Positions 6,848 to 61,742 of a stretch of DNA of 64,000 bases are shown here, piece by piece. The translations under genes and the position numbers were made by a program. Each line of letters begins with the position of its first letter. Within the stretch, counting starts at the first letter, position 1. Location of the stretch: contig CAMZEN010000007.1 of assembly GCA_947305775.1 (NCBI GenBank), positions 61-64,060 of the forward strand, written 5' to 3'. The notes below the pieces were generated by a model, which did not search any database, was not told the DNA's origin, and saw only the letters and a program-made list of their open reading frames with translations. The DNA is from an uncultured Verrucomicrobiota bacterium. GTDB lineage: Bacteria; Verrucomicrobiota; Kiritimatiellia; RFP12; UBA1067.

Positions 6848-6861
6848 CTGACTGAATCAGA

Positions 6862-8419: not shown

Positions 8420-8428
8420 ATTATACCA
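8420..8428 (-). promoter_or_regulatory. extended -10 box TGGTATAAT (minus strand) inside a conserved ~45-nt motif
   Basis: The reverse complement of 8417-8431 is GGGAATTATACCAAA→TTTGGTATAATTCCC. The adjacent GCGCAAGGGGGTATTTT block is shared with positions 172-190. Confidence 0.35.
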
Positions 8429-26989: not shown

Positions 26990-27240
26990 GGGCAGGGAGA
27001 GCGGGCGAGACGCCCGCTCTCCCAAGGTAGGGGTCCGCTCTCCCAAGTAAGAGTGCATGCACTCCCAAGGCATTTATAGGCCAAATAGCACCTGTTGTGC
27101 CGCTGGTGCGCACCTCTTGATGCTCTGGTGCGCACCAGAAGTTACAAAGTACTAGTATTTTTGATCAAAAGTACTAGTACTTTTGCGCATAAGTACTAGT
27201 ACATTTGCACAAAAGTACTAGTACTTTGTAACATTTCCCC
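26990..27240. repeat. palindrome/repeat array in the purL upstream intergenic region
   Basis: Hairpin GAGAGCGGGCGagaCGCCCGCTCTC. Three copies of CTCCCAAG. Two copies of the palindrome CTGGTGCGCACC. Four direct copies of AAGTACTAGTAC(A/T)TTT at ~20-bp spacing (27150-27240). Confidence 0.6.
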
Positions 27241-44861: not shown

Positions 44862-45542
44862 TCATGCCTGCGCACCGTCCTGGCTTACGCCGACTATGCC
44901 CGTGGAGAAGCCTGTGCGCACAAAAGCATAGTTGCGCATTCCGTCTGGTGCGACAATGATCGCTCCTGCGTCGAGAAACCGCGGCCATGTATCGCGTGAC
45001 CGAACTTCATATGCTCCGCGCGTGGAAAGAAAAGCGGCGATGTACAGATCATGGGTCGCCACAATCATCAGACGGGCCCTGAAGCGCTCTAACAACCATT
45101 TCTCCATAGAGTCGGACGACTCGTGGATTTCGTTAAAGCCGCGCATGCTGCCTTTATCCATGTACTCTATGCTCGCCGGGAAAAAGTTCTCCGGCGGGGT
45201 AAACACGTGCAGCACCTCGAGAGCGTCGCGATAATAGAAGCTTTCATTGCCGAGCAGCCCGTCAACCGGTATTTCAGGCGAAGCCACACCCATCCCTTCG
45301 GCTATCAGCGCCGCCGTCATACGCGTTCTTCGCAGCGGACTTGCAATGAACTGAACAGATCCGGCAAACGGCGCAAGCGCCTCTCCGAAAAGACGCGCCG
45401 TGCGCTCGCCCTCGGCAGTAAGCGGCAACGAGTCGCCAAAGGTAGGATCGGTGGGATCCATCTTCGGCCGCTCCGCATGGCGCACCAGCAAAATGACGCG
45501 CGAGCCTTCCCGAAGGGCGCTCGCGACATCATCCAACGTCAT
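44862..45542 (-). CDS. histidine phosphatase family protein (phosphoglycerate-mutase-like)
   Basis: Catalytic RHG-type motif LLVRHAERP. Start placed at MTLDDV to avoid a 60-bp overlap with the upstream gene; the track ORF extends to 45617. Confidence 0.55.
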   Translation of the reverse strand: MTLDDVASALREGSRVILLVRHAERPKMDPTDPTFGDSLPLTAEGERTARLFGEALAPFAGSVQFIASPLRRTRMTAALIAEGMGVASPEIPVDGLLGNESFYYRDALEVLHVFTPPENFFPASIEYMDKGSMRGFNEIHESSDSMEKWLLERFRARLMIVATHDLYIAAFLSTRGAYEVRSRDTWPRFLDAGAIIVAPDGMRNYAFVRTGFSTGIVGVSQDGAQA

Positions 45543-45556
45543 TTCTGCGTTACCGG

Positions 45557-48500
45557 TCACTGCGGTTTGCGCACGATTATCGTGCGGTTTGGCCGTGCGC
45601 TGCCTAGGCGGCTCCATTCCTTCAGCAGGCCAAAATAGTCACGCGCGAACACCGTCTGGATGCGCGGTGCGCAAGTACGGGCTACATCCACCACCAACCG
45701 TCCTTCGGCGTCGACGGAAGTGCTTATGCCGTACGAGAACCATACATCGTAGAAGTTGAGCGGATTCCTGAAGTCATATCCGCGCGGCAGATGGTCGGGC
45801 ACCGTGTATCCCTCCGGGAACGTAATGGTATAACGCACCCTGCTGCCCTCCACGGCATCTACGCACAGCGGCCCCTCACGATCGACGCCAGTGAGCGGGA
45901 AGAGCGGCGTGTAGAAGTCCGGCAGGACAATCGACATCAAATCGCCCTTGACGGCCGCGAAGTGAGGAACGTTGCACGAGAACGACATCTTCGCCGGATA
46001 CGACTCGGTGTCCGTCACAAGCTCGCCCGTTGCGCTCGCCCCCTGCGCTATCGTAGCGACGAGCTCCTGTATGTGGCGTCTCCTGTCCTCCGAAAGCATT
46101 TCCGCGTACTTCTTCCGGAATGTCCCCACGCCGCCGCCCCAACGGGTGCGGACTATGTCGAAGTCGGCCGAGCCATCCTCGTGCACCGAAACCGTTACTT
46201 CGGCTGTGTAGTAGGGGTTGAACTCGACCGGCTGTTCCACAAACTCGAACGTCTCGGTCACCGGATCGAAATAGTGCGAACCGGCATATGGCGAAAGACC
46301 TATGGGCGTGTACTCGTTCTCGGTACCCACGAACGTGTTCTTTACTTTGCGGCCGAAAGGCAGAAGGCCCCAAAGCCACCCGCCCTCGTACTCGCGAACA
46401 CGGCAGAGCGGTATCGCAAACTGGCGAACGTCGGGGAACCTCGTCATGGCGACTTCCTTAAGCTGAGGGTCCATGCCGCCGTCGGAGGACGAGAATACGA
46501 CATCCGCCTCATACCCGGCGCCGCGCAGAAGCGCGCACATGGTACGGATGAAATCGAGCCGTGTAGCATAGTGCTCCTTGAGAACAACTTCTGGATCGGT
46601 AAGCTGGGCCTCGATCGGAACTTCGTACAGGGAAGGTCCGACAACGCTTATGTTCCTGGACATCCAGTCGCGTATCTCCTTGATCTGCCTGCGCTCGCCA
46701 GCAACGGGCTTCACGTCCGCCGCCTTTCTAAGCTTCTCCGCTACATTGTGGAACGAATTCGAGCTAACGTGCCATATGTCGCGCCAGAAGTCGCCGGGCG
46801 ACTCCATGGGCTCCGCCTTCAGCAACCTCGGATTGATGACGGTGCGAACATCGCCGTTGATCCTTACTGTCAGCTCGTCCGTCGGTTCGAACACGTCAAA
46901 CGCCCACCATCCGCAAAATGGCGCAGGAGCGTCCTTGACGGTATTCTTGATGACGTACTTGATCGTGCTTCCGATCTCGACAGAAGGCAGGTTCACCACC
47001 ATCTGCTTCGATGCCGGATACCGCGGCGCGGACGACGCCCACGCGCAGTCCATTACGTTGACCTCATGCTCGCTGAGGTGGGCGACCTTGCCGTCGGGGC
47101 TGGTGACGAACGCCTCAAGCACCTCAACAGTCTCCCACGTCGGATTGAACGTGAAAGTCAGCTCGGAAGAGTTCTTCTTGCCGTCGTAGGTAAGGATCTC
47201 CTTGACGACAGTGTTGGTCACAGTCCAGCTGCTGTCGCCATCCAGGTCGATCTCGGACCTGTTCACCCAATAGCGGACGTTCGCATTCGACAGGGTGTCC
47301 TTCGCGAACGATGGCCTTTCACGCTCCGAGGAATCGACGTCTTTCATAGCCACCCTGATGTTTGCGTACTCTTCCGGCGAGAACTCCACATCGTTCACGG
47401 CAACACGGCGGAACACAACCAGCTCATCTCCTTCAATCCTAAAGGTGCGATCGTACTGGTATTTGCCGCCTATGTGCTTGTCGGGGGGCAGGGTCAACGC
47501 CCTGCCGATGGAGTCGCCGAGCTTGAGGCGCAGATTCTCGACTGCGGAGGCGGTGTAGTCCACCACAAGCGGATACTTCCTCTTTTCAAGCGACGTCTTG
47601 CCGGAAAGGATCCAGCTTACCGCTCCAAGCGAAGGCGTAACAAGCGGGGCGTTAAGCTCATCGCTGAAGTCGCCGCGCGAAATGGAGTCCGTTATGCGCG
47701 AAACGATCTTGACGCCGAGCGGAACCGACATGTCGTGCAGATCTACAGGGGTGATGTCGCACTGGATGAGTTCGGCGCCCGGGAAGCGGTTGCGGAGTAT
47801 CGTCTCGAACATCTTGCGGCGGGCCTCTGGCCTGCGCCTGAGAAGCACCTGGCGGAAGATGTTGTCGTTCATGCCGTTGAAGACGAGATTCTGCGTAAGC
47901 ATGATCGCACCGTCGCTGGTGAGGGACCCGAACGCATCGACCACCAGAGCGTTGTCGGGCTCTGCTGGCGGTATGGGCGACGTCCTAAGCGTTTCTCCAT
48001 CGGGGCGCGCAACGAGGTACGACCGGTTGGAGAGGTATGCCGGCATTATATCGCGGCTCGACTCGTCCGTCGGGTCCATAAGCACGTACTTGCCGTCATG
48101 CTGGTCGTCAAGACCTGAAGATGGGTCGTAATCGGGGTTCGCCGCAGCGACGATCGCATGGTTGAAGAACGGCGAAGGAACCTCCGGATCCTTCTTGGTG
48201 CCATTGTGTATGAGAACCGGAAATGCCTCTATGCCGGCGATCCTGAGCATCGCGACGAGAAGCGCGGCCTTGTCGCGGCACACGCCGTAGCGGTTGCCGA
48301 AGGTTATGTCGACGTCGTGCGGCGCATAACCCGGAGACGTATCTTCCATGGTGAGGCCCATGTAGCGCACCTCCTGGGCGACCCACTTGTAGAGGCTCTT
48401 CACCTTGGCATCAAAGGTATCGGCACCCTGTATGACGCTGAAGACCTTGTTCGAGATTGCCTCGTTCGTCTTTAACAGGTGGGGCAGGCTGAGGTCCCAG

Positions 48501-49267
48501 TACCACTGGGAAAGGTCCTCCCACCTTTCGGCCGTCGACACCTGAATGTTCTCTACGAGCGAGTAGAAAGGCGGCGTATCGGGTTCGGAGAACGACTGCG
48601 GCGAGTTTGTGGCGCGCCACGTATGAACAACGCGGCCATCGGCGTTCGTCACATGGCTCTCCTCGACGTTGCCAAGCGGATTGCGCACAGCCATCTTCCT
48701 GAGAGGCAGATCCTTGGGCGCGGTGACGCAGTATACCGATTCCAGGATCGGACATTCCCACTCGACGATGGTCATGTCTGCGAACTGCCCGTCAACGCGC
48801 GACTTGAAAGTCGACCGCTCTATGACGGTGTGGATCGTTTCGCCAACCATCAAGCCCGGCACGCGGCAGGCTACCTTACGGTGCATGGGATCGTATATGT
48901 TCTCCGCCATGGACGAGTTGTCGGTCGTCTCCTTCATCGTGGCGGCTATGTCCACCGCACGCTCCACGCCGTTGGTGCCTATTATGCCAACAGACACAAT
49001 CTTTGCCAAACCATAGCGCGACGAATAGGCGACGGAGAGTTCGCTTTCCTCGCGGCGCCCCTTTTCGGTCAGTATCTTAACCCAATTCTCATCTTTGTTG
49101 AAGTACGTACCGTCGGTAGCGTACTCTATGTTCCGCAAGCTCTTGACAAGCACGGCATTCGCATCAGGATACTTTTCAAGGGTGATGTCATCGTCGGCGA
49201 AAACGCATGCCGAAAAAACCAATGCCGTCCAAAGAAGCACCGCTTCCTTTCTTGTCGCAGATGTCAT
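45557..49267 (-). CDS. large secreted protein with transglutaminase-like core (DUF3857-like N-terminus)
   Basis: Signal peptide is present. Transglutaminase-like motif GVCRDKAALLVAMLRIAGIEAFPV. 1236 aa. Confidence 0.55.
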   Translation of the reverse strand: MTSATRKEAVLLWTALVFSACVFADDDITLEKYPDANAVLVKSLRNIEYATDGTYFNKDENWVKILTEKGRREESELSVAYSSRYGLAKIVSVGIIGTNGVERAVDIAATMKETTDNSSMAENIYDPMHRKVACRVPGLMVGETIHTVIERSTFKSRVDGQFADMTIVEWECPILESVYCVTAPKDLPLRKMAVRNPLGNVEESHVTNADGRVVHTWRATNSPQSFSEPDTPPFYSLVENIQVSTAERWEDLSQWYWDLSLPHLLKTNEAISNKVFSVIQGADTFDAKVKSLYKWVAQEVRYMGLTMEDTSPGYAPHDVDITFGNRYGVCRDKAALLVAMLRIAGIEAFPVLIHNGTKKDPEVPSPFFNHAIVAAANPDYDPSSGLDDQHDGKYVLMDPTDESSRDIMPAYLSNRSYLVARPDGETLRTSPIPPAEPDNALVVDAFGSLTSDGAIMLTQNLVFNGMNDNIFRQVLLRRRPEARRKMFETILRNRFPGAELIQCDITPVDLHDMSVPLGVKIVSRITDSISRGDFSDELNAPLVTPSLGAVSWILSGKTSLEKRKYPLVVDYTASAVENLRLKLGDSIGRALTLPPDKHIGGKYQYDRTFRIEGDELVVFRRVAVNDVEFSPEEYANIRVAMKDVDSSERERPSFAKDTLSNANVRYWVNRSEIDLDGDSSWTVTNTVVKEILTYDGKKNSSELTFTFNPTWETVEVLEAFVTSPDGKVAHLSEHEVNVMDCAWASSAPRYPASKQMVVNLPSVEIGSTIKYVIKNTVKDAPAPFCGWWAFDVFEPTDELTVRINGDVRTVINPRLLKAEPMESPGDFWRDIWHVSSNSFHNVAEKLRKAADVKPVAGERRQIKEIRDWMSRNISVVGPSLYEVPIEAQLTDPEVVLKEHYATRLDFIRTMCALLRGAGYEADVVFSSSDGGMDPQLKEVAMTRFPDVRQFAIPLCRVREYEGGWLWGLLPFGRKVKNTFVGTENEYTPIGLSPYAGSHYFDPVTETFEFVEQPVEFNPYYTAEVTVSVHEDGSADFDIVRTRWGGGVGTFRKKYAEMLSEDRRRHIQELVATIAQGASATGELVTDTESYPAKMSFSCNVPHFAAVKGDLMSIVLPDFYTPLFPLTGVDREGPLCVDAVEGSRVRYTITFPEGYTVPDHLPRGYDFRNPLNFYDVWFSYGISTSVDAEGRLVVDVARTCAPRIQTVFARDYFGLLKEWSRLGSARPNRTIIVRKPQ

Positions 49268-49333
49268 GTTACGTTCCTTGCTCAGTGATTGTTGGTACTG
49301 GATTCCCCAAAAGAGAAAAAGATTTGTAATTGT

Positions 49334-49342
49334 ATTATACCA
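49334..49342 (-). promoter_or_regulatory. extended -10 box TGGTATAAT upstream of the 45557-49267 gene
   Basis: The reverse complement of TGTATTATACCAAATT gives AATTTGGTATAATACA, about 65 nt upstream of the start codon. Confidence 0.35.
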
Positions 49343-49437
49343 AATTTTGGCCGCGCTCGCCGAACACTATCTCGACAAAAAAAGAAATGCGCCCCCCGAG
49401 GACGGGGGACGCATTGCGTCTTTATCTACCCGCCGCC

Positions 49438-51390
49438 TTATTGGGCGAGCGCGGCGGACACGTCGGCAAGAACCTGACGCAGCGCCTTGGGGACGCGGTG
49501 GGCCGTCTTGGAGGCAACCTTGGAGTCCTTGGACGGCTTGGCGTCGTACTCGTCGTACGAGGCGCCGACCGTTGCGATCTCCTTCTTCCAGCCCTCGACG
49601 TCAACCTTGAGGATCTCCTCGAGGTCGGCCTTGACGACATGGAACTTCGCGGTCTCGTCGTTGTTCGAGAGATCGATGTCCTGCGCGAACGGGATGTTGC
49701 CGATCGGGGTCTCGTTGGCCTTCACCTGACCCTCTATGCGCTGGCAGATCCACTTGAGGACGCGGCTGTTGTCGCCGAAGCCAGGCCACATGAAGCGGCC
49801 ATCCTCGCCCTTGCGGAACCAGTTCACGAAGTATATCTTGGGCAGCTTCGTCGCATCGGCGGAGGTGCGCTCCATCTCCAGCCAGTGCTGGAAGTAGTCG
49901 CACACATTGTAGCCGAAGAACGGGAGCATCGCCATCGGGTCGCGGCGGACCTGGCCGATCTGGTCGGAGATGACGGCGGCGGTGACCTCTGAACCGGCGG
50001 CGGAACCCATGAACACGCCGTGGGTCCAGCTCTTTGCCTCGTTCACCAGAGGAATCGTCGAAGGACGGCGTCCACCGAAGAGGACCGCGTCGATCGGCAC
50101 GCCCGTGGGCTTCTTGTTGTAGAGGCCGTTGAAGCCGGCCTTGTCCAGCACGGGGCAGTTCTCGGCGGGGGCGGTGAAGCGGCTGTTCTTGTGGGCCGCC
50201 ACATAGCCGAGCTCCTTGATCTCCTTCTTGGTCATGCCGGGCTTCGGACCCATGCGATATGGATCGTCCGCGCAGACGTAGCAGGGATTGCCCTTCCAGT
50301 CGACGCCTTCCTTAGGAGCCTTGACGCCCATGTCCTCCCACCAGATGTCGCCGTCGGGCGTAAGAACGACGTTCGTGAAGATCGTGCCCTTCTTGCAGCT
50401 CTTGAGCGCGTTGGGGTTGGAATCCATGGAAGTTCCCGGCGCAACGCCGAAGAAGCCGTTCTCGGGGTTGATTGCGTAAAGACGGCCGTCGTCGCCGGGC
50501 TTGAGCCAAGCGATATCGTCGCCGATCGTCTGGAGCTTCCAGCCATCGAGCTTGGGCTGCATCATGGCGAGGTTCGTCTTGCCGCAGGCGGACGGGAACG
50601 CCGCCGTAACGTGATACTGCTTCTTCTCGGGAGAAGTGAGCGTAAGGATGAGCATGTGCTCGGCCATCCAACCCTGATCCTTGGCGAGCTTGGACGCGAT
50701 GCGGAGCGCGAAGCACTTCTTGCCGAGGAGGGCGTTGCCGCCGTAGCCGGAACCGAACGACCAGATCTCGCGGTCCTCAGGGAACTGCGTGATGTACTTG
50801 TCTTCGATCTTCTTGGCGCAGGGCCAGGAGACGTCCTTCTCGCCCTTCTTGAGAGGAGCGCCGACGGAGTGGATGCAGGGGATGAAGTCGCCATCCGTGC
50901 CGAGATGCTTGATCACGGCGTCGCCGGTGCGCGTCATGATGTTCATGTTGACGACGACGTAAGGCGAGTCGGTGATCTCGATGCCGTACTGGGTGATCGG
51001 GTTGCCGATCGGTCCCATCGCGAACGGGATGACGTACATCGTGCGGCCCTTCATGCAGCCGGTATACGCCTTCGTCATCTTCTTCTTCATCTCGACGGGA
51101 TCCATCCAGTGGTTCGTCGGGCCCGCGTCGATCTCGCGCTTGGAGCAGATGAACGTACGACCCTCGACGCGCGCAACGTCGCTCTCGTGCGAGCGGGCGA
51201 GGTAGCAATCGGGACGCTTCTTGGCGTTCAGTTTTATGAACTGCCCGTTCTTGACCATCATCTCGCAAATGGCGAGATGCTCGGCCTTCGTGCCCTTCAC
51301 GACCACGATCTTATCGGGCGTGCAGACCTTGTTCCACTTGTCAACCCATGCGAACACCTTGGCATTCGCGAACTTCGGCGTCTTGGCCAT
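49438..51390 (-). CDS. pckG: phosphoenolpyruvate carboxykinase (GTP)
   Basis: Kinase-1a motif FPSACGKTNLAM and overall GTP-PEPCK sequence. 650 aa. Confidence 0.9.
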   Translation of the reverse strand: MAKTPKFANAKVFAWVDKWNKVCTPDKIVVVKGTKAEHLAICEMMVKNGQFIKLNAKKRPDCYLARSHESDVARVEGRTFICSKREIDAGPTNHWMDPVEMKKKMTKAYTGCMKGRTMYVIPFAMGPIGNPITQYGIEITDSPYVVVNMNIMTRTGDAVIKHLGTDGDFIPCIHSVGAPLKKGEKDVSWPCAKKIEDKYITQFPEDREIWSFGSGYGGNALLGKKCFALRIASKLAKDQGWMAEHMLILTLTSPEKKQYHVTAAFPSACGKTNLAMMQPKLDGWKLQTIGDDIAWLKPGDDGRLYAINPENGFFGVAPGTSMDSNPNALKSCKKGTIFTNVVLTPDGDIWWEDMGVKAPKEGVDWKGNPCYVCADDPYRMGPKPGMTKKEIKELGYVAAHKNSRFTAPAENCPVLDKAGFNGLYNKKPTGVPIDAVLFGGRRPSTIPLVNEAKSWTHGVFMGSAAGSEVTAAVISDQIGQVRRDPMAMLPFFGYNVCDYFQHWLEMERTSADATKLPKIYFVNWFRKGEDGRFMWPGFGDNSRVLKWICQRIEGQVKANETPIGNIPFAQDIDLSNNDETAKFHVVKADLEEILKVDVEGWKKEIATVGASYDEYDAKPSKDSKVASKTAHRVPKALRQVLADVSAALAQ

Positions 51391-51458
51391 GTTTTTTACT
51401 CCTTAAGGTTGCCCCTTTTAGGGCGTGATTAAAGCATTGTGTTGATTATATCATAATA

Positions 51459-52040
51459 CTACGCATCCGCGCAACCGCAAAACGGTTCTATTCCGGAAAG
51501 AGGCGGGTGCTTCTTGTCCTTTTCGCTGAGCGTCAACGGCACACCTATCTCCGGCCACTTTATTCCGAGCGCAGGGTCGTCGAAACGCATGCCCCTGTCG
51601 GCCTCAGGATTGTAGAGGTTGTCGCATTTGTAGCTGAATAGCGTATTGTCCTCAAGCACTATGAAGCCGTGGGCGAACCCCCGAGGAATGTAGAACTGCT
51701 TCATGTTCTCGCCCGATAGCGTAACCGCCACATGCCTGCCGTATGTCGGCGAACCCTTGCGTATGTCAACTGCGACATCCCAAACGGCACCGCGTATCAC
51801 ACGCACCAGTTTGGCCTGCGTATGCGGCGCAGCCTGCCAGTGAAGTCCGCGCACAACGCCCTTCATGGAGAAGGATTCGTTGTCCTGAACAAAATCGGAC
51901 ATTATGCCGGCCGCCTTGTAGCGTGCCGCATTGTACGTTTCGCAGAAGTACCCGCGAGCATCCCTGAACACATTCGGCGTAACGATCTTTACGCCTTCGA
52001 TTTCGGTTTCAACTACTTCCATGGCAAAAAATTGTACCAT
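51459..52040 (-). CDS. rfbC: dTDP-4-dehydrorhamnose 3,5-epimerase
   Basis: RmlC cupin motifs (…RGLHWQ…QAKLVRVIRGAVWDVAVDIR…). 193 aa. An alternative start at the internal MEVVET is possible. Confidence 0.85.
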   Translation of the reverse strand: MVQFFAMEVVETEIEGVKIVTPNVFRDARGYFCETYNAARYKAAGIMSDFVQDNESFSMKGVVRGLHWQAAPHTQAKLVRVIRGAVWDVAVDIRKGSPTYGRHVAVTLSGENMKQFYIPRGFAHGFIVLEDNTLFSYKCDNLYNPEADRGMRFDDPALGIKWPEIGVPLTLSEKDKKHPPLSGIEPFCGCADA

Positions 52041-52053
52041 ATCAGGCCGCTCA

Positions 52054-52215
52054 ATGCAATACGAGTTTTATAAAATGCGCGTCTGCGCATTGCCGCGCGA
52101 CATCTTAGAGCCCGCTTGGCATGACTGGATTGTGAAGCGCGAGGACCAACTCGACGCCTTTCGCCGCTACATTCGCGAAAACCCCGCCCGCGCCAGCCGA
52201 CGCGACCGTCCTAAG
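52054..52215 (+). pseudogene. C-terminal remnant of a second RAYT/IS200-like Y1 transposase
   Basis: Translation …WHDWIVKREDQLDAFRRYIRENPARASRR matches the catalytic-Tyr helix YI(R/K)xNP(A/V)RA and parallels KAIRNYIKLNPARA in the gene at 5549-6805. The HUH region is absent. Confidence 0.4.
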
Positions 52216-52299
52216 CGTCCTACTAGCCGCCCACAACCCAACCACGACTCTCCCGCGACTCTTGGACAAAAGTGCGTGCACTTTCTGGACAACACCGAA

Positions 52300-52815
52300 A
52301 AAGCGGGGACAGTCCCCGCACTCACCCAAACCTTTGCGACCTTCGCGAACTTCGCGTGAGTCCACACCCGCCCCAAAAAGCGGGGACAGTCCCTTGATTC
52401 GCGCGGCACACTTATTGCAATAAGTGTTCCAAGACTTCATTGTTCTGCCCGCTATTCTGCGGGTACGGATGCCAACTGAAGCCGAAAAGATGAATTTCTA
52501 TGCAATAAACCTGCCAGATACCTTCGTATCATCCAGTCCGACCTTTGTATCATCCAGTACCGACTCTGTATCATCCAGTAGGGACCTTTGTATCTTTGTG
52601 ATACACAAACAGAGAAACAAAACAGATAACAAAACAGATTTTAACAGAGAACCAATTGCCCTGGATAAAGTTGTTGAATCCATGTAGAGACTGTCCCCCC
52701 CCCCCCAAAAAAAAAAGCGGGGACAGTCCCCGCACTCACCCAAAACCTTTGCGACCTTCGCGAAGTTCGCGTGAGCTCCCACCCCCGCAAAAAGCGGGGA
52801 CAGGCACCGCAAGTT
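52300..52815 (+). repeat. composite repeat element, copy A (REP-like hairpins plus iteron core)
   Basis: Near-identical to 58860-59365. Contains four AAAAGCGGGGACAG(TCCCCGC) hairpin units. 18-bp palindrome CACTTATTGCAATAAGTG (52409-52426). Three GTATCATCCAGT iterons at 21-bp spacing (52526-52579). Inverted pair TGTATC…GATACA. C12A10 tract (52695-52716) enclosed by GACTGTCCCC/GGGGACAGTC. Confidence 0.75.
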
Positions 52816-52944
52816 CTGTGATGTCCAGAAGCTAATGCAAGATTCTCTTGCGTTTAGTTCTGAACACGACACGATCAAGCGCGGGGAGCCCCGCCTTATA
52901 ATGCCTAGCCGGTGCGGAGATGCACAGTGGTTTTGAAAACAAAA

Positions 52945-54894
52945 CTACTCGCCGAACTTGACCTTGAAGAACTGCGAGGGTGCCGCCTCGGGAGCGGCGA
53001 CCTCGAGAGTCATCTTGACCGCGCTCTTCTTCTCTTTGACAGTCACGCCGCCTGCCATCGGCGCAGCATCTTCAAGCTCGGACAGGGATCCGGCGCGGTA
53101 AACCTTGACGACATCCTCATCGACCGCCACGCCGGAAGCGTCGTTCTCGATTTCCGCAAAGATTGTGATCGTGCACTTGTCGTTCTCGACCTGCGCGAAC
53201 TTAACTACTTCCGACGCGCCGCCTGTTCCGAATGCCGGCTCGGCCACCGCGCCCGTCACCGCGACACCGTTGATTGTCACGCGAATCCCCCCTGGGATGG
53301 ACACCGCATGTGAGGTCGCGCCCTCGATGACATCGCCATCCGCTGCCGTCCAATCGGACTCAAGAAGCGAAAGGTCAGCAATCTTGCTGAATGTCGCAGT
53401 GTAAGTCGTGTTGCTCACAGCCGGTTCAATCGCAGGCGTCCAGCCAGTAAACACCCAGCGGTAAGGTGCGTCAGCCCCACCTTTCGTCGCTGCAGCGTGT
53501 GCAGGCACCGCATTGCTGGGAACGATTGTCGTCTCGATCTCCGTACCGTCTTCGTTGAGCCATGTGATATCGAACTTGTATTCCGGCTCAAAAATAAGCG
53601 TTTTCCCATCCTCGCTTTCGTACCGTATCACATTTTCGGAAATGTTTTGAGCAGCACCAACATAGACAGTAGTTTTACCGTGAATTTCGACCCTACTTAT
53701 CGTTGACTCGACCGTCAGAGTGCCGCACCAGATTGTGCCAGGATTATATAAACTAGTACCGCTAGCGACGACGGTAACCTCACCACCCTTGAACGTGACA
53801 GAAGTCGTGTAAATAGCGAAATACGAAGATGTCTCGATCTCAACAACACCACCTTCAAATACGATGCTGCTTTCAACAGAGGAATCTCTTCGACCAATTA
53901 CACCGTTGTTTACAAGTCTGCCGGTGCTCCCCTTTATCGTCAGAGTCGGTGCTGTTCCATTTACGCGAATGGCATAGTATGTAACATTTGACACTACATT
54001 CACCGTTTCGTCGGCAAGAATTATGGTGGCACTGCCGCTGCAGTCGATTGCGGGGGCATCACCTCCTTCGGGAATCGAAATCGTCGCATCCGACAAGGTT
54101 ATGGTCGCACCATCAGGAATTATAATACCGTATGACGTGGAGCCTGTCAGCACATCGCCGTTATGGACCGTGTATGTTCCGGTCAGTTCCGACAAATCGA
54201 CCGTTGTGCCGGTCGTGCCCGGATCGTCGCCTGGATCATCGCCCGGGTCTTCACCAGGATCTTCCGCCATCTTCGCCTGAGTGATGGTGACGGTTTTCCC
54301 GGCTATGTATATTGTAGCCTGGCGGGCGTCGCCAGTGTTCGCCGCGACAGTGAAGTTAACGCTTCCAGGGCCGCTTCCGCTGTTAGCCGAGAAGGTTATC
54401 CAATTGCAGGACATATAATTCTCCACAGCGTAGGTGCTTCCCCACGAAACGCCGGAATCGACCGAAACGGTCAGCGTGCCGCTTCCGCCAGATGCTTCGA
54501 ATGATGTCTTGCTGCATGATACTATTGCACTTTTGCCGGATTGTGTAATATCGCAGGCTGCGTTCCAGACGGACGTGGAACCTTGGAGCCTGAAATACAC
54601 ATGCAAAAGTCGCTCATTTACAGAGGTGCTTTTCGATACTGTCACCGTCACCGAATCGCCTATACTGATGTATTGCTTGTTGACAGAAACGCTCGAATCG
54701 GATGTAAACACATAAAGTTCAGTTGATGATGGCCATTCACCCGTGCTGGTGTATTCGCTGGTTATGGAAAAGGTGCCGCCGTTGGCCGAGACGGTTCTTG
54801 TCTTTGGCGATATTGTCCAGCCAGCAAACGATTGCAGAGCGGAGAAGACCGCCAACGAAAGACAGGCAAGTGTTGCCAGAGTCTTGTTCTTCAT
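52945..54894 (-). CDS. large secreted beta-rich (Ig-like/BACON-like) protein
   Basis: Signal peptide MKNKTLATLACLSLAVFSALQSFA. Thr/Ser/Val-rich repeated beta-strand segments. Acidic (GEDPGDDPGDDPG) linker. 649 aa. Confidence 0.5.
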   Translation of the reverse strand: MKNKTLATLACLSLAVFSALQSFAGWTISPKTRTVSANGGTFSITSEYTSTGEWPSSTELYVFTSDSSVSVNKQYISIGDSVTVTVSKSTSVNERLLHVYFRLQGSTSVWNAACDITQSGKSAIVSCSKTSFEASGGSGTLTVSVDSGVSWGSTYAVENYMSCNWITFSANSGSGPGSVNFTVAANTGDARQATIYIAGKTVTITQAKMAEDPGEDPGDDPGDDPGTTGTTVDLSELTGTYTVHNGDVLTGSTSYGIIIPDGATITLSDATISIPEGGDAPAIDCSGSATIILADETVNVVSNVTYYAIRVNGTAPTLTIKGSTGRLVNNGVIGRRDSSVESSIVFEGGVVEIETSSYFAIYTTSVTFKGGEVTVVASGTSLYNPGTIWCGTLTVESTISRVEIHGKTTVYVGAAQNISENVIRYESEDGKTLIFEPEYKFDITWLNEDGTEIETTIVPSNAVPAHAAATKGGADAPYRWVFTGWTPAIEPAVSNTTYTATFSKIADLSLLESDWTAADGDVIEGATSHAVSIPGGIRVTINGVAVTGAVAEPAFGTGGASEVVKFAQVENDKCTITIFAEIENDASGVAVDEDVVKVYRAGSLSELEDAAPMAGGVTVKEKKSAVKMTLEVAAPEAAPSQFFKVKFGE

Positions 54895-55066
54895 GTCTGT
54901 TACCCTTATACGCTTGTTCCGTTCGGCTGTTTGCCGCAGGGGTTGAACGGAAGAAGTCCCCGCGACACGTTCTGCTGAGACGGCTGGCATGACCACATCC
55001 AGACAACCAGTCGCCATACTTACATACGCATGGCGCAGGGAAAAATTATGCGGCGAGGGGAAAAAA

Positions 55067-55663
55067 CTATTCGCCGTAAGCCGACTCGACGGCGGCGATC
55101 ATGCGATCGATGCGGTGCTTTATCTGGCGAAGCGCGTTGATCTTGAGATCATGTGCGGCGGCGACCTCTTCCGCAGGGCGGCAGTCGAGTGCGTAGGCGC
55201 GATATGCCGCGACAGTGCGCGGGTCCAGCATCGTCCGCGAAAGCACATGCTCAACCGCCGCCGCATGACGCGCCGCGCGAAGGCGTACATCGACAATGGT
55301 GGCAGCGTCCATCACACCGGACTCGACCTCCAGCCCATCAATCGGCACCGTGCGCCCTTCTCCTCGCGCGGCGGCGCGTCTGTGCATATCTACGAGAAGC
55401 CGCCGCACCATCGAGTAAAGATAGCTCCTGAAGCGACCCTTCTTGCGTTTGTAGCCGCCGCCACGCAACACGTCCACAAGCCGGATCATTACTTCCTGCA
55501 CCACATCGTCGGCGTTGCTCCCATTGACGCCGCCCAGCTCATCTGCGTATCGCCTTATCACCGGCGTGTACAGCTCTGCAAAGCGCTCCCATTCCGCAGA
55601 GTCGTCGCCGTCGGCAAACTCGGATATCTTCCGCAAAAGCGTCTGAGGAGTGTCTGGCGTCAT
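55067..55663 (-). CDS. RNA polymerase sigma-70 factor, ECF subfamily
   Basis: Region-2-like DDVVQEVMIRLV…YLYSMVRRLLVDMHRR. C-terminal region-4 HTH (…HDLKINALRQIKHRIDRM). Overlaps the downstream kinase gene by 4 bp. Confidence 0.65.
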   Translation of the reverse strand: MTPDTPQTLLRKISEFADGDDSAEWERFAELYTPVIRRYADELGGVNGSNADDVVQEVMIRLVDVLRGGGYKRKKGRFRSYLYSMVRRLLVDMHRRAAARGEGRTVPIDGLEVESGVMDAATIVDVRLRAARHAAAVEHVLSRTMLDPRTVAAYRAYALDCRPAEEVAAAHDLKINALRQIKHRIDRMIAAVESAYGE

Positions 55664-57342
55664 TGTCTCTCCATGGCGAGGTCCGGCCCGATGCAGATCC
55701 GGAACAATGCATGTATCCCTTCAGGCTTGCATATCCAGCGCGCATCGTGCGCCTGACGGATAAGGCATTTGGTTCCGCCGCGCAGCGGATCGATCTCTTC
55801 TGCGGCGTACGCAAGGTCGTCGGACGAATTCACGCGGTCGAGCACGACCTGCTCGCTGTCGGTCCAGCCACATGAAATGCCCCACCCGTTGAACGCCTTG
55901 TGCGGAAGCAGGCGGATGTCGTCGCGATAAGCGACACCAGACACGTTCGTCGCTGCCTCTGCAAGGTTCCTTGTCGCACCCGCGTCCCAATACACGTCTT
56001 CGAACGCAAGCGGCCATTTGCCGCCTTCAAGAAGCGCATATTCAAGTTCCGCCTCGGTCGGAAGGCGAAAGACGTAGCCCTCGGGAAGAATGTGGCCGTA
56101 GGTGCGGTTCAGGCACCGGCAGAATTCCTCGCCTTCTGGATACCACAACCTGTATACGACATCATATTCCGGGAAGGCGGCTTCGAATGCGGCTGACGCC
56201 ATGTCGCGCTTCCGGTTGGCCTTGATTGTGCGGCACTGCCGCGCGGCAACCGGCATCGCGCCAATCCAGAACGGGCGCGTTATCGTCACCTTGTGGTCAG
56301 GCTTGTTGTTCGGCCATTGCCCGCTGGACATCATGAACGATCCTGCCGGGCACGCGCAGAAGACCATTTCGCCGCCGCCATCCAAGGCGAGCGACTTTAC
56401 GCGCGGCGTATGGAACGTTGGCGGAAGAGCCCATTCGCCTTCAGTATCGAATCGAGACAGCGACTCTGACCCGTTCGCCGGCGGATCATTTAATCGGAAC
56501 ATCACCAGACCCGCAACAACAGCAAACGCTGCAGATACCGTCAAAGCCGCCGCGATGCGCCGTCCGCGGGATGGTCGATGACCGGCCACTCCCAAGAGCT
56601 GAGGTATCGACCGACGCCAGAAATCGCCAAACGGGGCAAGCATTCCACCTACATCCACCCCCGGTTCGTACCACATGCCGGTAAGCAGCCTGAAAAACAT
56701 GACGCCTAGCGCATACCTGTCGGATTCAGGCGTCGCGGGCGCGCCGGCGCGGACCGCCGGAGAAAGGTAGAAGTATGTTCCCATCACGGGGCGCGTTCCC
56801 GTAGATTCGCCCTCAACGAACGTTGTGGTAACTTCGAGTGCGTCCTTAAGCTCTTCGCCGAAGATGCGCGAGACGCCAAAGTCGGAAAGGTGCGCATGAC
56901 CGTCGGCGTCTATGAGAACATTCTCCAGCTTGACGTCGCGATGCACCACACCGCGCCGCGCAAGGTAGGCAAGGACGCCGGAAATTTCCGCAAACCAGCG
57001 GCGGGCGTCCGCATCCGATACGGCGCCCCGCTTGCGCAAATCCTCAAGCGTAGTGGCCTCGCCATCGCGGCCAAGCACGAGATCCATCGTGAAGAACGGC
57101 TCCCCGCCGGACTCGTCCTCTCCGGCGTCGTATACTCCAACGAGGTGCGGATGGGCCAGGTGCGACAGCAACCGTGCTTCTGCACAAAAACGCTTCTTCA
57201 GAAAATCCCCGTTCTTCTTCGTCACCGAAAAGAGCTTAAGAGCAAAGCGTCGACCATTCTGGGACTCGACCTCGTATACGCGCCCCATTCCGCCTCGTCC
57301 AATGAAGCGGACGATGCGATACCTTCCTATATGACCGTCCAC
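55660..57342 (-). CDS. Ser/Thr protein kinase fused to a C-terminal FGE-sulfatase (SUMF1-like) domain
   Basis: Hanks kinase motifs (GRGGMGRVYEV, ALKLF, HRDVKLENVLID, DFGVSR). A transmembrane segment (AAALTVSAAFAVVAGLVMF). FGE-family domain (…FWIGAMPV…YRLPTEAELEYALLEGG…). Confidence 0.75.
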   Translation of the reverse strand: MDGHIGRYRIVRFIGRGGMGRVYEVESQNGRRFALKLFSVTKKNGDFLKKRFCAEARLLSHLAHPHLVGVYDAGEDESGGEPFFTMDLVLGRDGEATTLEDLRKRGAVSDADARRWFAEISGVLAYLARRGVVHRDVKLENVLIDADGHAHLSDFGVSRIFGEELKDALEVTTTFVEGESTGTRPVMGTYFYLSPAVRAGAPATPESDRYALGVMFFRLLTGMWYEPGVDVGGMLAPFGDFWRRSIPQLLGVAGHRPSRGRRIAAALTVSAAFAVVAGLVMFRLNDPPANGSESLSRFDTEGEWALPPTFHTPRVKSLALDGGGEMVFCACPAGSFMMSSGQWPNNKPDHKVTITRPFWIGAMPVAARQCRTIKANRKRDMASAAFEAAFPEYDVVYRLWYPEGEEFCRCLNRTYGHILPEGYVFRLPTEAELEYALLEGGKWPLAFEDVYWDAGATRNLAEAATNVSGVAYRDDIRLLPHKAFNGWGISCGWTDSEQVVLDRVNSSDDLAYAAEEIDPLRGGTKCLIRQAHDARWICKPEGIHALFRICIGPDLAMERQ

Positions 57343-57354
57343 GATTGACAGGTA

Positions 57355-57870
57355 TTATAGCATATCAAGCGGGAACGAACAACGGAGGAGCGGCAGAAAT
57401 GGTAAGATTTCATGCAGCCGCTTTATGTATGCTTCAGTCAAGGCGGACGTGGCGGTCATGATTATCTTATCGACTGCGCGGAAATGGTTCGCCGTCTCGA
57501 CAATATCGTCAACAGGCACGTCCGCGCCAAACTCACCTATCGTCTTCGTCTCGAAGATCCATCGTGTCTGTTCGTGCGTAAGGCGACTTCCCTCGATGTG
57601 GTTCGAGTTGTAGGTGATGTCAATTTGAAGGCGATGGTAAAGTCCGCCTGAGATGCGTGAACTTCGCTCCGCCTCCAGAACGCCGAGAACGGTTGTGGGG
57701 AATGTCCGGCGGCGCTTGCGCTCAGGCTTGGCGGCATTAGCCGGTATTCGCCATTCTCCTTGATCTAATATAGCCCCTGCTATGCGGTTGTCGGCGCAAT
57801 ACGAGCGTACCTGACGGGGTGTTATTCCCCATTTTGCGGCAATCTCTTCTATAGTCATAAAATCCATCAA
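57355..57870 (-). CDS. HTH domain plus Fic N-terminal fragment (3'-truncated Fic-family ORF)
   Basis: N-terminal MerR/excisionase-like HTH (TIEEIAAKWGITPRQVRSYC). Then the Fic N-region motif YNSNHIEGSRLTHEQTRWIFE. Ends before any HPFx(D/E)GNGR motif. Confidence 0.5.
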   Translation of the reverse strand: MMDFMTIEEIAAKWGITPRQVRSYCADNRIAGAILDQGEWRIPANAAKPERKRRRTFPTTVLGVLEAERSSRISGGLYHRLQIDITYNSNHIEGSRLTHEQTRWIFETKTIGEFGADVPVDDIVETANHFRAVDKIIMTATSALTEAYIKRLHEILPFLPLLRCSFPLDML

Positions 57871-58273
57871 AAAGCCTCCTTCGTGTTTTGCGGAAGTTTA
57901 TCCCCCTCAAAAGGAAGTATATCAAAGAGCAAATTGTGGGCTGATTTGCCAAGATAAACTTCCGCAGCACTCATGTATTTCATAGTTCACCTCCATGCGA
58001 AACTTTTTCCACCTGAAGCGAAATATATCCCGCGATTTTTAGGTGCTGACCCCATGGAAGTGCATGTCGGGGTGATGGCATCCACCCTGTCACCGTTGAA
58101 TCGCCGCAACCACGCTTTGATGCCGTCATACTGGGCGCGGCAGAACTTCTTGGAAACGCTCATCGCGCAACGCCCCCTCGCCGGAACCGGCATCATGCTG
58201 CGGTTCTCCACACGCTTCAGCCCCGACATGATCAAGACGGCGTATGCTCCGGTGCAGGTAAAGGCGTTGACGA

Positions 58274-58855
58274 TCATTTGATGTAACCTTTGCGCTTGTC
58301 CGCCACAACCTCCCAATGTCCACCTTTGTCAGGGCCGACGCGGCGGATGAGGTTGGCGTCTTTCAGCTTGCGGATGTTCCATCTCACGCCGTCAACTGAA
58401 AGCCCAGTAGCGTTCGCCAGCTCTGCCAAAGTGACATCCGGCATCGACTTCATGACCGACATTATTTTCTCGGTAGTTTTCTTGTCAGTCTTTGCGGCGG
58501 CAATCTCGTATGCCTTGCCCTTGGCCTTGAGCGTCCGCAGAATCTTGTCGAGCATGAAATCGATGAACGGCCCGCACTCGCCGGCGGCGGTTGAGGCGCG
58601 GATTGCCTGGTAGTATTCCTGCTGGTGCGCCCAGACGATGTTCTCGACGGGCGCACCGTAGAACTCGTTGCGCCAGGAGCCGAGAAGCGCGGTCTGCCAG
58701 AGCCGCCCGGTGCGTCCGTTGCCGTCCGGGAACGGATGGATGAACTCGAACTCGTAGTGGAACACGCAGCTCTTGATCAGCACGGGGTCTTCGCTGTCCG
58801 CAAGCCATGCGAAGAGGTCTTTCACGAGCGAGGGAACGTTAATCAAGCGCGGGGA
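58274..58855 (-). pseudogene. Fic family protein, 5'-truncated at the boundary of repeat copy B
   Basis: Contains the Fic catalytic motif HPFPDGNGRTGR and a C-terminal winged-helix (…LAELANATGLSVDGVRWNIRKLKDANLIRRVG…). The expected ~80 N-terminal Fic residues are replaced by repeat sequence upstream of ~58855. Confidence 0.5.
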
Positions 58856-58859
58856 CCCA

Positions 58860-59365
58860 AAATTGAGAGCGCGAAAAGCGGGGACAGGCCCCATGTGCGT
58901 TGCGCGTGAGCCCACACCCGCCCCCAAAAGCGGGGACAAGTCCCCTGATTCGCGCAGCACACTTATTGCAATAAGTGTTCCAAGACTTCATTGTTCTGCC
59001 CGCTATTCTGCGGGTACGGATGCCAACTGAAGCCGAAAAGATGAATTTCTATGCAATAAACCTGCCAGATACCTTCGTATCATCCAGTCCGACCTTTGTA
59101 TCATCCAGTACCGACTCTGTATCATCCAGTAGGGACCTTTGTATCTTTGTGATACACAAACAGAGAAACAAAACAGATAACAAAACAGATTTTAACAGAG
59201 AACCAATTGCCCTGGATAAAGTTGTTGAATCCATGTAGAGACTGTCCCCCCCCCCCCAAAAAAAAAGCGGGGACAGTCCCCGCACTCACCCAAAACCATT
59301 GCGACCTTCGCGAACTTCGCGTGAGCCCACACCCGCCGCAAAAGCGGGGACAGGCACCGCAAGTT
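58860..59365 (+). repeat. composite repeat element, copy B
   Basis: Direct repeat of 52300-52815. Same hairpins, 18-bp palindrome (58959-58976), three iterons (59077-59130) and a C12A9 tract (59246-59266). The left-most hairpin unit is diverged. Confidence 0.75.
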
Positions 59366-59399
59366 CTCACCAACCCAGCCAACCCTTTCTTTAGGTTCG

Positions 59400-59810
59400 G
59401 GTTGGATTTACTTTCTATTCTCTTTTGTGTCTCACTGTGAGACGGTGGGGGGCTCACTGTGAGACGGTCTCCCCCTCACGAGAAGCAGGCTGCGGCCTCG
59501 CGAGGTGCACCCTAGGGGGTAGCACGGTGCGGGTCCCTAACCTGCACGCTCTCCGTCTAGGGGGTTTTTCGACTGCGACCCCCTAGGGTCAGCTCGTCAG
59601 CGAGACGCCCGCTCTCCCAGCTGAGACGCTCTCCCAGGCTGGCGGGCGCTGCGCAAAAAAGACCCTAGGGCAAATGAAAAAGACCCTAGGGCGACAGCAA
59701 AACTTCCCTACGGGAAAACGAAAAGTCCCCTAGGGCTAAATCAAATCAACAGCACGGGAAAAACAACATGGCAAAGCCAAAATTCACAAAATAGCCTCCG
59801 GGGGTCCGTC
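59400..59810. repeat. palindrome-rich noncoding region
   Basis: Two copies of CTCACTGTGAGACGGT. At least six copies of the palindrome CCCTAGGG, three of them in AAAGACCCTAGGGC context. The GAGACGCCCGCTCTCCCA block is shared with 27003-27020. No ORF with coding character. Confidence 0.55.
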
Positions 59811-60828
59811 ACAACCCGCAGATTCGCCGCATATTATCCATGAAAACATGTTTGGCGAAGCTGGAAGCATTAGCGCGACAGGCATCAACCGACCATGGGC
59901 GAGACTCGAATTCCTCTATTGCGCCGCAAAGCGATTCGACGGATTCTTCGCCGAAGAAAAGCCCGGTTTCGCCATCGCGAACGGTCTCGAGCGCACCGCC
60001 TTTGCCGAGCGCGATAACGGGCGTGCCAGCCGCCTGCGCCTCGACCGGGACAATGCCAAAATCCTCGACACCCGGAAAGAGAAGCGCCCTCGCCCCCGCA
60101 TAAATAGACCGAAGTTCGATGTTTGTGACGTTTCCGCCACCGGCAACCACAAGACGCCTGCCCATCCTGCGACATGCATCTTCAGCCAAATCCAGCCGTT
60201 TGTACGATACATTTGCGCCGACAAAGAGGTAGTAGCCTTGGTCGGACCTTTCGACATTCCGGAAGAAATCAACATCTACCGGCGGATGCACGACAACCGA
60301 ATCGCGGCCGTATATCCTCTTTATGCGATCCGCCACAAACGCGGAATTTGCGACAAACTCGTCAACACTCTCGGCGCTCTTCAGATCCTCCTTGCGGAGA
60401 TATCCGGTGAAGAGCGCCATGGCAAGTTTGCCGCCGACTCCTGCGTTCCGGTAATATTCGTCATGCATGTCCCACAAATAGCGCATTGGAGTGTGGCAAT
60501 AGCATATGTGCCGCGCACCCTTCGGCTTTCGGATGCCCTTTACAGGTCCGGATTCGCTGGAGACAATCAGGTCGTACCCGTCCAAGTCAAGCAATCTGGA
60601 CGCGATAGGCATGAGCGGGAGATACGCCTGTGGATGCCTGCGGCCAAGAGGAAGTCGCGATATCAAACTTTCCGTAACACGCCGTCCCTCGAACAGTCCC
60701 TCCATGTTCTTAGGCAGATACGCATGAGTGAAAATATCTGCCTCGGGTAGCAACTCGCCAAGCGCGGCAAGCACCTTCTCTCCGCCACGCACGTTCGTAA
60801 GCCAGTAGTGAAGAAGAGCTGTCTTCAT
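59809..60828 (-). CDS. glycosyltransferase family 4
   Basis: C-terminal GT-B EX7E region EDFGIVPVEAQAAGTPVIA. 339 aa. Confidence 0.75.
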   Translation of the reverse strand: MKTALLHYWLTNVRGGEKVLAALGELLPEADIFTHAYLPKNMEGLFEGRRVTESLISRLPLGRRHPQAYLPLMPIASRLLDLDGYDLIVSSESGPVKGIRKPKGARHICYCHTPMRYLWDMHDEYYRNAGVGGKLAMALFTGYLRKEDLKSAESVDEFVANSAFVADRIKRIYGRDSVVVHPPVDVDFFRNVERSDQGYYLFVGANVSYKRLDLAEDACRRMGRRLVVAGGGNVTNIELRSIYAGARALLFPGVEDFGIVPVEAQAAGTPVIALGKGGALETVRDGETGLFFGEESVESLCGAIEEFESRPWSVDACRANASSFAKHVFMDNMRRICGL

Positions 60829-61742
60829 GTCGAATCCCTCAAAAGGCCTGCAAGTGCGTCCGAATCCTCAACAGCGAAGAGTTTTGCCGCCGCATAGCCC
60901 TTCAGCACATCGCGATTGCCCGGACAGTCCGATGCCATAACCCTTCGCCCTCGTGCAACAGCCTCGAGCAGCAAGTAAGGCATGCCTTCCCATCTGCTCG
61001 GCGCGACAAGCGTCCTGCCGCACACCATGTACACCCCGGCGTCTGGAATCTCGCCGGCGAACTCAACAATGTCAAGAATGCCTCTCTTCGCGGCAAACTC
61101 CTTGTCCGCCGCCAAAGTCTCCCCGCCGCCTATCATTAGAACACGCTTGCCGTCCCTGCGCAAATCTTCCTGAACAGCCGCAATCGCACGCAAAAGGATG
61201 TCCTGTCCTTTCTGCAGATTGAACCGCGCTATGCATACGAACGCGAATTCATCCTTGCCGTAGCGCAAGCCCGTCGCAGGCATTGTGAACTCAGAAAGCT
61301 CCACCGTATTGGGCTCCACCGACACAGGAAGAGATGGACCATACAGTCGCTGGATATCAGCCGCGTCAGTTTCCGTAAGCGCTATCAGACCGTCGCATCT
61401 GCGGTAGAGCCAGCGTTCCAGCCAAAGGCGAAAAGTCCGCTTAAGCCGATTGGCGGCCACCTTCGGCAGAAAGTCGTATTTGCGCAGATGTATGCCGTGC
61501 ACAGTGAAAACGACCTTGCCCTTGGGCCGCGAAAATGGATTACCCAAAAGCTGCACCAACGCCTTCAGGTGGTTGACGTGTATGATTTCCGCGGCCCACT
61601 CGTCCATCTTCGCGGCGGTGCATTCGCCTCGATCCGAGAAGAACACCCGCGTCTCGTCGCCAGGATGCGCAGCGATCTGGCGACGGATATACTCCATCCC
61701 ACCACCAACCGAATCGCGGTCTATGAGATAGGCGATCTTCAT
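60825..61742 (-). CDS. glycosyltransferase family 4
   Basis: …SRWEGMPYLLLEAVARGRRVMASD… 4-bp overlaps with neighbours. Confidence 0.75.
   Translation of the reverse strand: MKIAYLIDRDSVGGGMEYIRRQIAAHPGDETRVFFSDRGECTAAKMDEWAAEIIHVNHLKALVQLLGNPFSRPKGKVVFTVHGIHLRKYDFLPKVAANRLKRTFRLWLERWLYRRCDGLIALTETDAADIQRLYGPSLPVSVEPNTVELSEFTMPATGLRYGKDEFAFVCIARFNLQKGQDILLRAIAAVQEDLRRDGKRVLMIGGGETLAADKEFAAKRGILDIVEFAGEIPDAGVYMVCGRTLVAPSRWEGMPYLLLEAVARGRRVMASDCPGNRDVLKGYAAAKLFAVEDSDALAGLLRDST

Follow-up and report, generated by a model that had tools for sequence, protein, structure and literature searches.

We examined a repeat that occurs twice in a 64,000-nucleotide stretch of contig CAMZEN010000007.1, assembled from an uncultured Verrucomicrobiota bacterium; the whole of this stretch is referred to below as the window. 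The core of the repeat is probably what is left of the middle of a phage-style replication initiator gene that carries a candidate replication origin inside its coding sequence, a reading that we base on protein homology and on the comparison of related loci. The first-pass annotation of this DNA had described the core as having the architecture of a replication origin or a partition site. The origin part of that description gained support, since the block of repeats turned out to lie in the linker of an O-like initiator gene, with a gene for a DnaC-like helicase loader next to it in relatives.

The two copies of the repeat (A and B) lie in direct orientation, 6.55 kb apart, and the repeat unit exceeds the span first described, with copy A covering approximately 52298-52817 and copy B approximately 58870-59367. 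Over 52406-52706 (301 bp) the copies show zero differences. The palindrome, the iterons, the inverted pair and the A-rich repeats reported earlier were all found in place. The features of the core in copy A, and copy B as a whole, are the following:

52409-52426, no strand: 18-bp perfect palindrome CACTTATTGCAATAAGTG (58960-58977 in copy B), a candidate operator, aligned with a palindrome upstream of the initiator promoter in relatives.
52424-52687, plus strand: open reading frame (ORF) of 87 amino acids, a truncated remnant of an O-like initiator gene.
52526-52579, plus strand: three direct iterons GTATCATCCAGT, spaced by two helical turns at exact 21-bp steps (starts 52526, 52547 and 52568; 59077, 59098 and 59119 in copy B), each encoding V-S-S-S.
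52589-52605, plus strand: inverted pair of iteron half-sites, TGTATC at 52589 and GATACA at 52600.
52606-52650, plus strand: A-rich run of about four 12-bp repeats (AAACAGAnAAC), including AACAAAACAGAT at 52616 and 52628, a candidate DNA-unwinding element.
58870-59367, plus strand: copy B, whole unit, with its ORF at 58975-59238.

Taken as a whole, these features are not attributable to chance. With three mismatches allowed, 0.03 random matches to the CACTTATTGCAATAAGTG palindrome are expected, and for the exact 12-mer GTATCATCCAGT the expectation is ~0.008 (64 kb, both strands; hand arithmetic). Tandem Repeats Finder reported the AACAAAACAGAT stretch as a 12-bp repeat with 2.7 copies. The GC content at 52600-52649 is 0.30 versus a mean of 57% for the window, and the A-rich run has an AT skew of +0.66. 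Among the iteron sites of the core, the inverted pair arises only at the fourth.

A protein search with the 87-amino-acid ORF returned homologs at E values of 1e-23 to 1e-27, and a second search, with the longest of these, reached full-length proteins of 226-249 amino acids; the homologs are P0001-P0011. The intact gene was found in rumen metagenome contigs, the sole named relative being an uncultured Lentisphaerae genome. Its product consists of a winged helix at the N terminus, a linker and a C-terminal domain that is conserved. The winged-helix domain matches Pfam HTH_36 at 1.7e-11 as well as PHROGs 270, 428 and 391, which are annotated "replication initiation / O-like", at 1e-8 to 1e-11 (best 1.6e-11). 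Besides HTH_36, a weak DnaD_N match was the only Pfam hit of the initiator, and the C-terminal domain has no family match in Pfam or PHROGs. The family is narrow: in 1.84 billion representative proteins, 3 clusters were found at E <= 1e-30, and 8 when the limit was relaxed to E <= 1e-10.

Of this protein, the ORF in the window retains the end of the winged-helix wing together with the linker and the A-rich part, and is left without the N-terminal helix-turn-helix (HTH), the C-terminal domain and a promoter. When full-length relatives were used as tblastn queries, only their residues 68/81-150/160 matched, at 52430-52675, and the HTH domain is deleted from the window copies except for roughly 15-30 codons. 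No sigma-70-like promoter was found at the window ORF. The ORF had previously been judged unlikely to be real; in the light of its homologs it follows the true ancestral frame, and what remains in the window is now a truncated, promoter-less fragment. A 78-amino-acid ORF with LDDT repeats on the minus strand had also been considered as the coding frame and was dropped after the plus-frame homologs turned up.

The iterons occupy codons ~108-128 of 243, in the stretch that separates the HTH from the conserved C-terminal domain. Together with the A-rich repeats they encode the linker peptide, which is composed of VSSS repeats followed by KQRNKTDNKTD and is predicted to be disordered (predicted local distance difference test, pLDDT, 23-32 in a poor model). 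The distant homologs P0031, P0034 and P0036 have other repeats in the corresponding place of the linker (GATVAP, AEGExISP, NGETIAP), again followed by an E/K/Q-rich stretch, and linker repeats thus appear to be a general trait of the wider initiator family.

The DNA of the block is under more constraint than its peptide would require. Six full-length genes were aligned by codon, and the share of identical residues encoded by differing codons was 0.4-0.55 in the domains, 0.21-0.27 in the iterons and 0.02-0.13 in the A-rich part, and amino-acid divergence is higher in the block than in the domains despite this lower synonymous difference. Over all pairs, identical residues used the same codon in 313 of 361 cases in the block (87%) versus 1309 of 2115 elsewhere (62%), with single divergent pairs reaching p = 2e-5. 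The codons concerned are unusual for these genes: GTA makes up 61% in the block versus 12% in the rest of the gene, AAA 94% versus 39%, and TCA and AGT 27% each versus 6-7%; ACA and AGA, which are rare in these genes, behave likewise. A +1/-1 frameshift pair in L106 alters the peptide and leaves the DNA of the block unchanged.

The geometry of the block is kept as well. Across 11 distinct sequences the iterons start 36, 57 and 78 nt past a fixed landmark, so that the 21-bp spacing noted in the window holds in other copies, and their number is three, two (L109) or one (P0007). The 12-mers are conserved and the 9-bp spacers between them vary. The inverted pair forms a perfect GTATCAC-N-GTGATAC in L105, L106/L108 and L110, and 5 of the 11 sequences show a compensatory T-A to G-C swap in it. 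Finally, the block was retained, independently, in each of the deletion derivatives (L099, P0007, L100, L001/L101 and the window). Phase, rare codons, synonymous constraint, frameshift, compensatory swap and derivatives together indicate that the block is a cis-acting DNA element overlapping a tolerant, probably disordered linker. The first-pass annotation had offered a protein-coding homolog as an explanation that would replace an origin-like one. Such a homolog does exist and explains half of the matter: coding and a putative cis-acting function overlap here, as they do in lambda.

A different explanation of the same data is that the block is simply a disordered Ser/Lys/Asn-rich linker kept uniform by slippage, in which case the window copies would be pseudogene debris with no role in cis. 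The predicted disorder fits this, as do the repeat number of 1 to 3 among close relatives and the presence of GGATCA in every iteron of L102, a sign of concerted evolution. Yet the synonymous constraint is not limited to the tandem 12-mers and extends to the A-rich and the unique inverted-repeat parts; the rare codons are shared by lineages only 66-78% identical in protein; and neither the preservation of the DNA across a frameshift, nor spacers that vary freely between 12-mers that do not, nor the survival of the block in several independent deletion derivatives is what a mere linker would lead one to expect. We therefore consider this explanation unlikely.

In relatives, the putative origin-bearing gene belongs to a cassette. 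In every longer contig (L102-L109), a downstream gene overlaps the stop codon of the initiator by 4 bp. Its product matches PHROG 3277, a DnaC-like helicase loader, at 1.7e-17 and gives weak DnaI and DnaC matches against solved structures. Initiator and loader form a cassette of ~1.8 kb, and every cassette closes on its 3' side with a second array, made up of 4-6 units that have palindromic cores and a phase of 21-23 bp. The sequence of this array is variant-specific (CCCTAGGG, TACCCCTAGGGGTA, GTCCTAGGAC, AATCACCGGACGATT). The arrays were located as follows:

L102, 9748-9875: 3' array.
L106, 1786-1941: 3' array.
L103, 3894-4011: 3' array.
Window, 59505-59745: 3' array.

At the other end, the relatives have a palindrome, AAAATGCGTGCATTTT, upstream of the initiator promoter. 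It differs from the CACTTATTGCAATAAGTG palindrome of the window, whose sequence is not conserved and which faces the other palindrome of the relatives in a weak alignment. A second palindrome in the window, AAAGTGCGTGCACTTT at 52270-52285, is more like that of the family. Cassettes of the L102 clade have 2-3 TTTACCGCGGTAAA palindromes at their left end.

By analogy with lambda and SPP1, the initiator would bind the inverted pair as well as the phased iterons; melting of the A-rich run, which would serve as the unwinding element, would come next; and the DnaC-like loader would then place the host helicase on the melted DNA. Judged by its sequence, the design of the block is the classical origin-within-initiator arrangement, and so of a known kind.

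The iterons of lambda are four 19-bp units with dyad symmetry. As in the lambda O gene with ori-lambda, iterons and an AT-rich tract lie mid-gene between an N-terminal DNA-binding and a C-terminal domain, the number of iterons varies, the next gene serves helicase loading and the initiator has O-like PHROG matches. In contrast to lambda, the block here has three direct iterons of 12 bp, phased at 21 bp, and a single inverted pair, palindromic cores are confined to the 3' arrays whereas each lambda iteron has dyad symmetry, the loader is an AAA+ DnaC-like protein and not P, and the module is found by itself in chromosomes, with no further phage genes in sight. The number of iterons is 4 in lambda and 6 in Shiga toxin (Stx) phages, the extra iterons adding residues to the O protein (PMC7466680).

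A second precedent is oriL of phage SPP1, which is embedded in gene 38 and consists of iterons and an AT-rich unwinding element; a 356-bp fragment of it works when the proteins are supplied (PMC5737612). The initiator G38P is of a different Pfam family, pfam09524 (PMC5737612). SPP1 shares with the present module the initiator-bound repeats and AT-rich element inside the initiator gene and the loader gene that follows (G39P), and the sufficiency of its origin fragment in trans is the situation that a relic in the window would need. It differs in encoding its own helicase, G40P, whereas no helicase gene accompanies the module here. Theta plasmids of the iteron type (RepA, pi, TrfA) have direct repeats about two helical turns apart beside an A/T-rich region, with the initiator gene adjacent. 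The present module differs from them in that its iterons are inside the coding sequence, in the lack of a Rep_3/WH1-WH2 match and in the lack of any plasmid match as DNA or protein.

Several observations weigh against the origin-in-gene reading. First, the module has near-zero similarity to known phages and plasmids. The first-pass annotation had proposed to look for the core in such databases; blastn found no match in 50,697 phage and 72,556 plasmid records, and the replication context emerged through the protein homologs. With the full-length initiator as query, tblastn gave one weak phage match (24% of the query) and none in plasmids. Second, the structure model of the initiator (AlphaFold, 13-sequence alignment) reached a mean pLDDT of just 46.5, a poor value that does not confirm the fold. 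Third, GTATCATCCAGT is free of internal dyad symmetry (it is not self-complementary, as read from the sequence), and the intragenic iterons are constant although the putative recognition helix differs between variants. The origin that the initiator really binds could be the 3' palindromic array, or this array could be an additional origin. Tandem repeats can also stay uniform through slippage and gene conversion, which inflates their apparent conservation. Finally, no initiator, loader or promoter of the module is present in the 64-kb window, leaving the window copies without all trans-acting factors; for that reason they cannot fire alone. They are either dead relics or origin-only sites, whose present-day activity would need an intact module elsewhere in the genome.

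Related loci were also sought by pattern. A scan for two exact iterons in 185,579 species genomes gave one true relative, L001, which comes from an uncultured rumen Lentisphaerae genome and is 91% identical to the window over ~200 bp. A six-frame comparison of the window with L001 gave no signal of purifying selection or coding, a result that is misleading because both are truncated relics. The iteron scan also returned L002, a rumen contig that is AT-rich and unrelated; 6 of the 7 tandem 21-bp units in its array contain identical GTATCATCCAGT, within an ORF at 3917-4060, probably a coincidence arising from a heptad-repeat protein. A relaxed pattern scan gave 8 loci in viral contigs and 87 in metagenome contigs, all of them chance matches by blastn, and a peptide-pattern scan of viral contigs found nothing.

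Both copies of the repeat are contained in an island, which has these parts besides the cores:

52065-59804, no strand: 7.74-kb island holding both repeat copies, missing from L098.
52945-58960, minus strand: cargo, namely a 690-amino-acid secreted protein, an extracytoplasmic function (ECF) sigma factor, a Ser/Thr kinase with an FGE-sulfatase domain and two Fic fragments.
59505-59745, no strand: second iteron array at the right island end, with four 21-22-bp units AAAAAGACCCTAGGGC at 59656-59741.

The limits of the island were set by the metagenome contig L098, which aligns with 45202-52064 (98.9% identity) and with 59805-61350 (91.9%) but with no part of the interval; because it joins rfbC directly to the glycosyltransferase gene (46 bp apart), we take 52065-59804 to be an insertion/deletion polymorphism. 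The drop in identity from left to right points to a recombination boundary in a polysaccharide locus of variable content. Read from its left end, the island comprises an ORF fragment, the first palindrome, repetitive extragenic palindromic (REP)-like units, core A, the cargo, core B and the CCCTAGGG array. CCCTAGGG occurs 5 times in this second array and nowhere else in the 64 kb, with further sites upstream of the AAAAAGACCCTAGGGC units, and the array corresponds to the palindromic, variant-specific arrays with which every intact module closes on the right. In the DNA separating core B from this array, a 16-bp perfect direct repeat, CTCACTGTGAGACGGT, is present twice 22 bp apart (59431-59468) and contains an inverted repeat CTCAC/GTGAG.

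Removal of one 6.55-kb repeat unit from the island gives the layout of the truncated elements in L001, L100 and L101, and on that ground the cargo probably entered via recombination between two core copies. The Fic/DOC fragments are non-contiguous (57355-57870, N-terminal with an HTH; 58274-58960, Fic motif and winged HTH), which suggests gene decay or rearrangement within the island. In an exact-protein look-up, neither the 87-amino-acid ORF nor the ECF sigma factor was on record.

The truncated elements themselves have 2-6 tandem 21-bp dyad-symmetric units, CCGCAGAATTTGCGGATTTTT, beside ~45 bp that are nearly all A/T:

L100, 701-842: CCGCAGAATTTGCGGATTTTT units.
L001, about 7440-7520: CCGCAGAATTTGCGGATTTTT units.
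L101, 655-700: CCGCAGAATTTGCGGATTTTT units.

Units and A/T stretch, which lie inside a called minus-strand ORF, look like a second, lambda-like origin. One truncated cassette copy is 60 bp away from a tRNA-Leu gene.

Mobility offers two further ways of viewing these data. In the first, which we hold to be no more probable than the slippage account, the cassette would be a self-contained, recombinase-free element spreading between chromosomal sites in rumen Lentisphaerae, or else a secondary chromosomal origin or a helicase-loader system undergoing domestication; the window cores would be non-autonomous satellites replicated or mobilised in trans, and the 6.5-kb duplication the scar of a circular origin-bearing molecule integrated by homology. 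In the second, the block itself would be a site of recombination, attachment or mobilisation, the duplication would stem from site-specific or Campbell-type integration, and the origin would be the 3' array. Several findings speak for such a site: the cassette is 99.2% identical over 1759 bp in the unrelated flanks of L106 and L108, L098 has an empty site in place of the island, the cargo is bordered by direct repeats of the block, and no integrase or other phage gene was found within 5-10 kb in L102, L103, L105 and L109. The palindromic, variant-specific 3' arrays at 21-23 bp phase also resemble lambda-type iterons co-evolving with their initiator. However, the boundaries of the element lie at the outer arrays and not at the block, no recombinase is known for the module, the duplication is explained equally well if two 0.5-kb copies underwent ordinary homologous recombination, and the place of the block between initiator domains beside an A-rich tract matches the origins of lambda and SPP1. 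A mobilisation site thus seems quite improbable, and of the readings discussed so far the one with the least credit. The cassette ends were searched for target-site duplications and terminal inverted repeats, with none convincing; the most that emerged was a possible 10-bp imperfect inverted repeat in the L106/L108 variant.

The other half of the original description, that the core is a partition site (centromere), gained no support. Phased direct repeats are typical of par centromeres too. Against this, no ParA/ParB, ParM/ParR or related gene occurs in the island or in ten related loci, where the constant partners of the block are the initiator and the helicase loader, and we regard a partition function as very improbable.

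The core in each copy is flanked by REP-like sequences, as follows:

52298-52394, no strand: REP-like 77-bp units with hairpin GCGGGGACAGTCCCCGC, left of the core.
52689-52817, minus strand: partial inverted REP arm, C12A10 tract and 1.5 REP-like units.
52298-52394, 52717-52817, 58870-58945 and 59267-59367: all REP-like units.

Within the window, REP-like units occur only inside the island, and they account for nearly every difference between copies A and B (about 11, versus none in the 301-bp core; 4 mismatches and 1-2 gap columns in each flank). The GCGGGGACAGTCCCCGC hairpin with its T-run scores as a minus-strand intrinsic terminator and folds strongly, and on the minus strand GCGGGGACTGTCCCCGC followed by T10 forms an intrinsic terminator downstream of the 690-amino-acid gene.

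The C/A tract reported by the first-pass annotation is present in both copies, as C12 (52695-52706) and A10 (52707-52716) in copy A and as C12 and A9 (59246-59266) in copy B, with the one-A difference between them as described. The arms of its hairpin, GACTGTCCCC (52689) and GGGGACAGTC (52719), were found as well, and the hairpin folds strongly. Tract and hairpin had been counted as part of the origin core, and this assignment was abandoned: both are absent from all relatives, and since no relative carries the tract, we assign it to the flanking REP-like terminators. The A10 run is the T-tract of one such terminator, and the left arm of the hairpin resembles an incomplete REP-like unit in inverted orientation.

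In the flanks only, the likeness to REP/REPIN (REP doublet forming hairpin) elements with their REP-associated tyrosine transposases (RAYTs) extends to short, GC-rich, near-palindromic intergenic hairpins that are clustered and arrayed; the differences are that the units are 77 bp long, that within the window they are confined to the island and that the flanking ORF fragment is without a Pfam match. This fragment (52085-52200) ends in WHDWIVKREDQLDAFRRYIRENPARA, a RAYT-like motif; Pfam gives no hit for it and so does not support a RAYT reading.

That the core encodes a structured small RNA is the least probable of all these explanations: minus-strand terminator-like hairpins do bracket the core and the flank has a folding z-score of -5.6, though from the REP-like hairpins, yet Rfam gave no credible match (whole window at gathering thresholds; core at E <= 10), RNAalifold over 11 sequences gave a consensus of -5.2 kcal/mol with a covariation term of +0.2 and no covariation support, there is no promoter-like site, and the reading frame is conserved in intact relatives. 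The structured non-coding RNA that had been named earlier as a competing explanation was accordingly not encountered.

Elsewhere in the window, large inverted repeats at 4079-8217, whose 794- and 581-nt arms are 90% complementary and which have 309-bp tandem duplications internally, surround ORFs whose 3' ends are shared as repeats. A 92-bp near-perfect palindrome at 27141-27232 (46-nt arms, 89% complementary, with AGTACTAGTA motifs) is intergenic, upstream of a 1964-amino-acid ORF. A motif containing TAGTATA and GCGCAAGGGGGTATTT is found in intergenic DNA at 145-202 and 8415-8472, and beside tRNA-Leu in L100 (about 160-200); it may be a lineage-specific promoter or leader motif. The window has no tRNA gene.

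With this analysis, an anonymous 0.5-kb repeat becomes identifiable as the putative cis-acting middle of a replication-initiator gene, and the block provides a clean computational example of DNA-level selection overlapping a coding sequence. It would place lambda-style origin-in-gene modules in Lentisphaerae-like rumen bacteria, a little-studied lineage in which hardly any mobile genetic elements have been described. The cassette occurs at several chromosomal sites without a recombinase, and in its intact 1.8-kb form it is a candidate minimal replicon or shuttle vector for bacteria that are uncultured or hard to manipulate.

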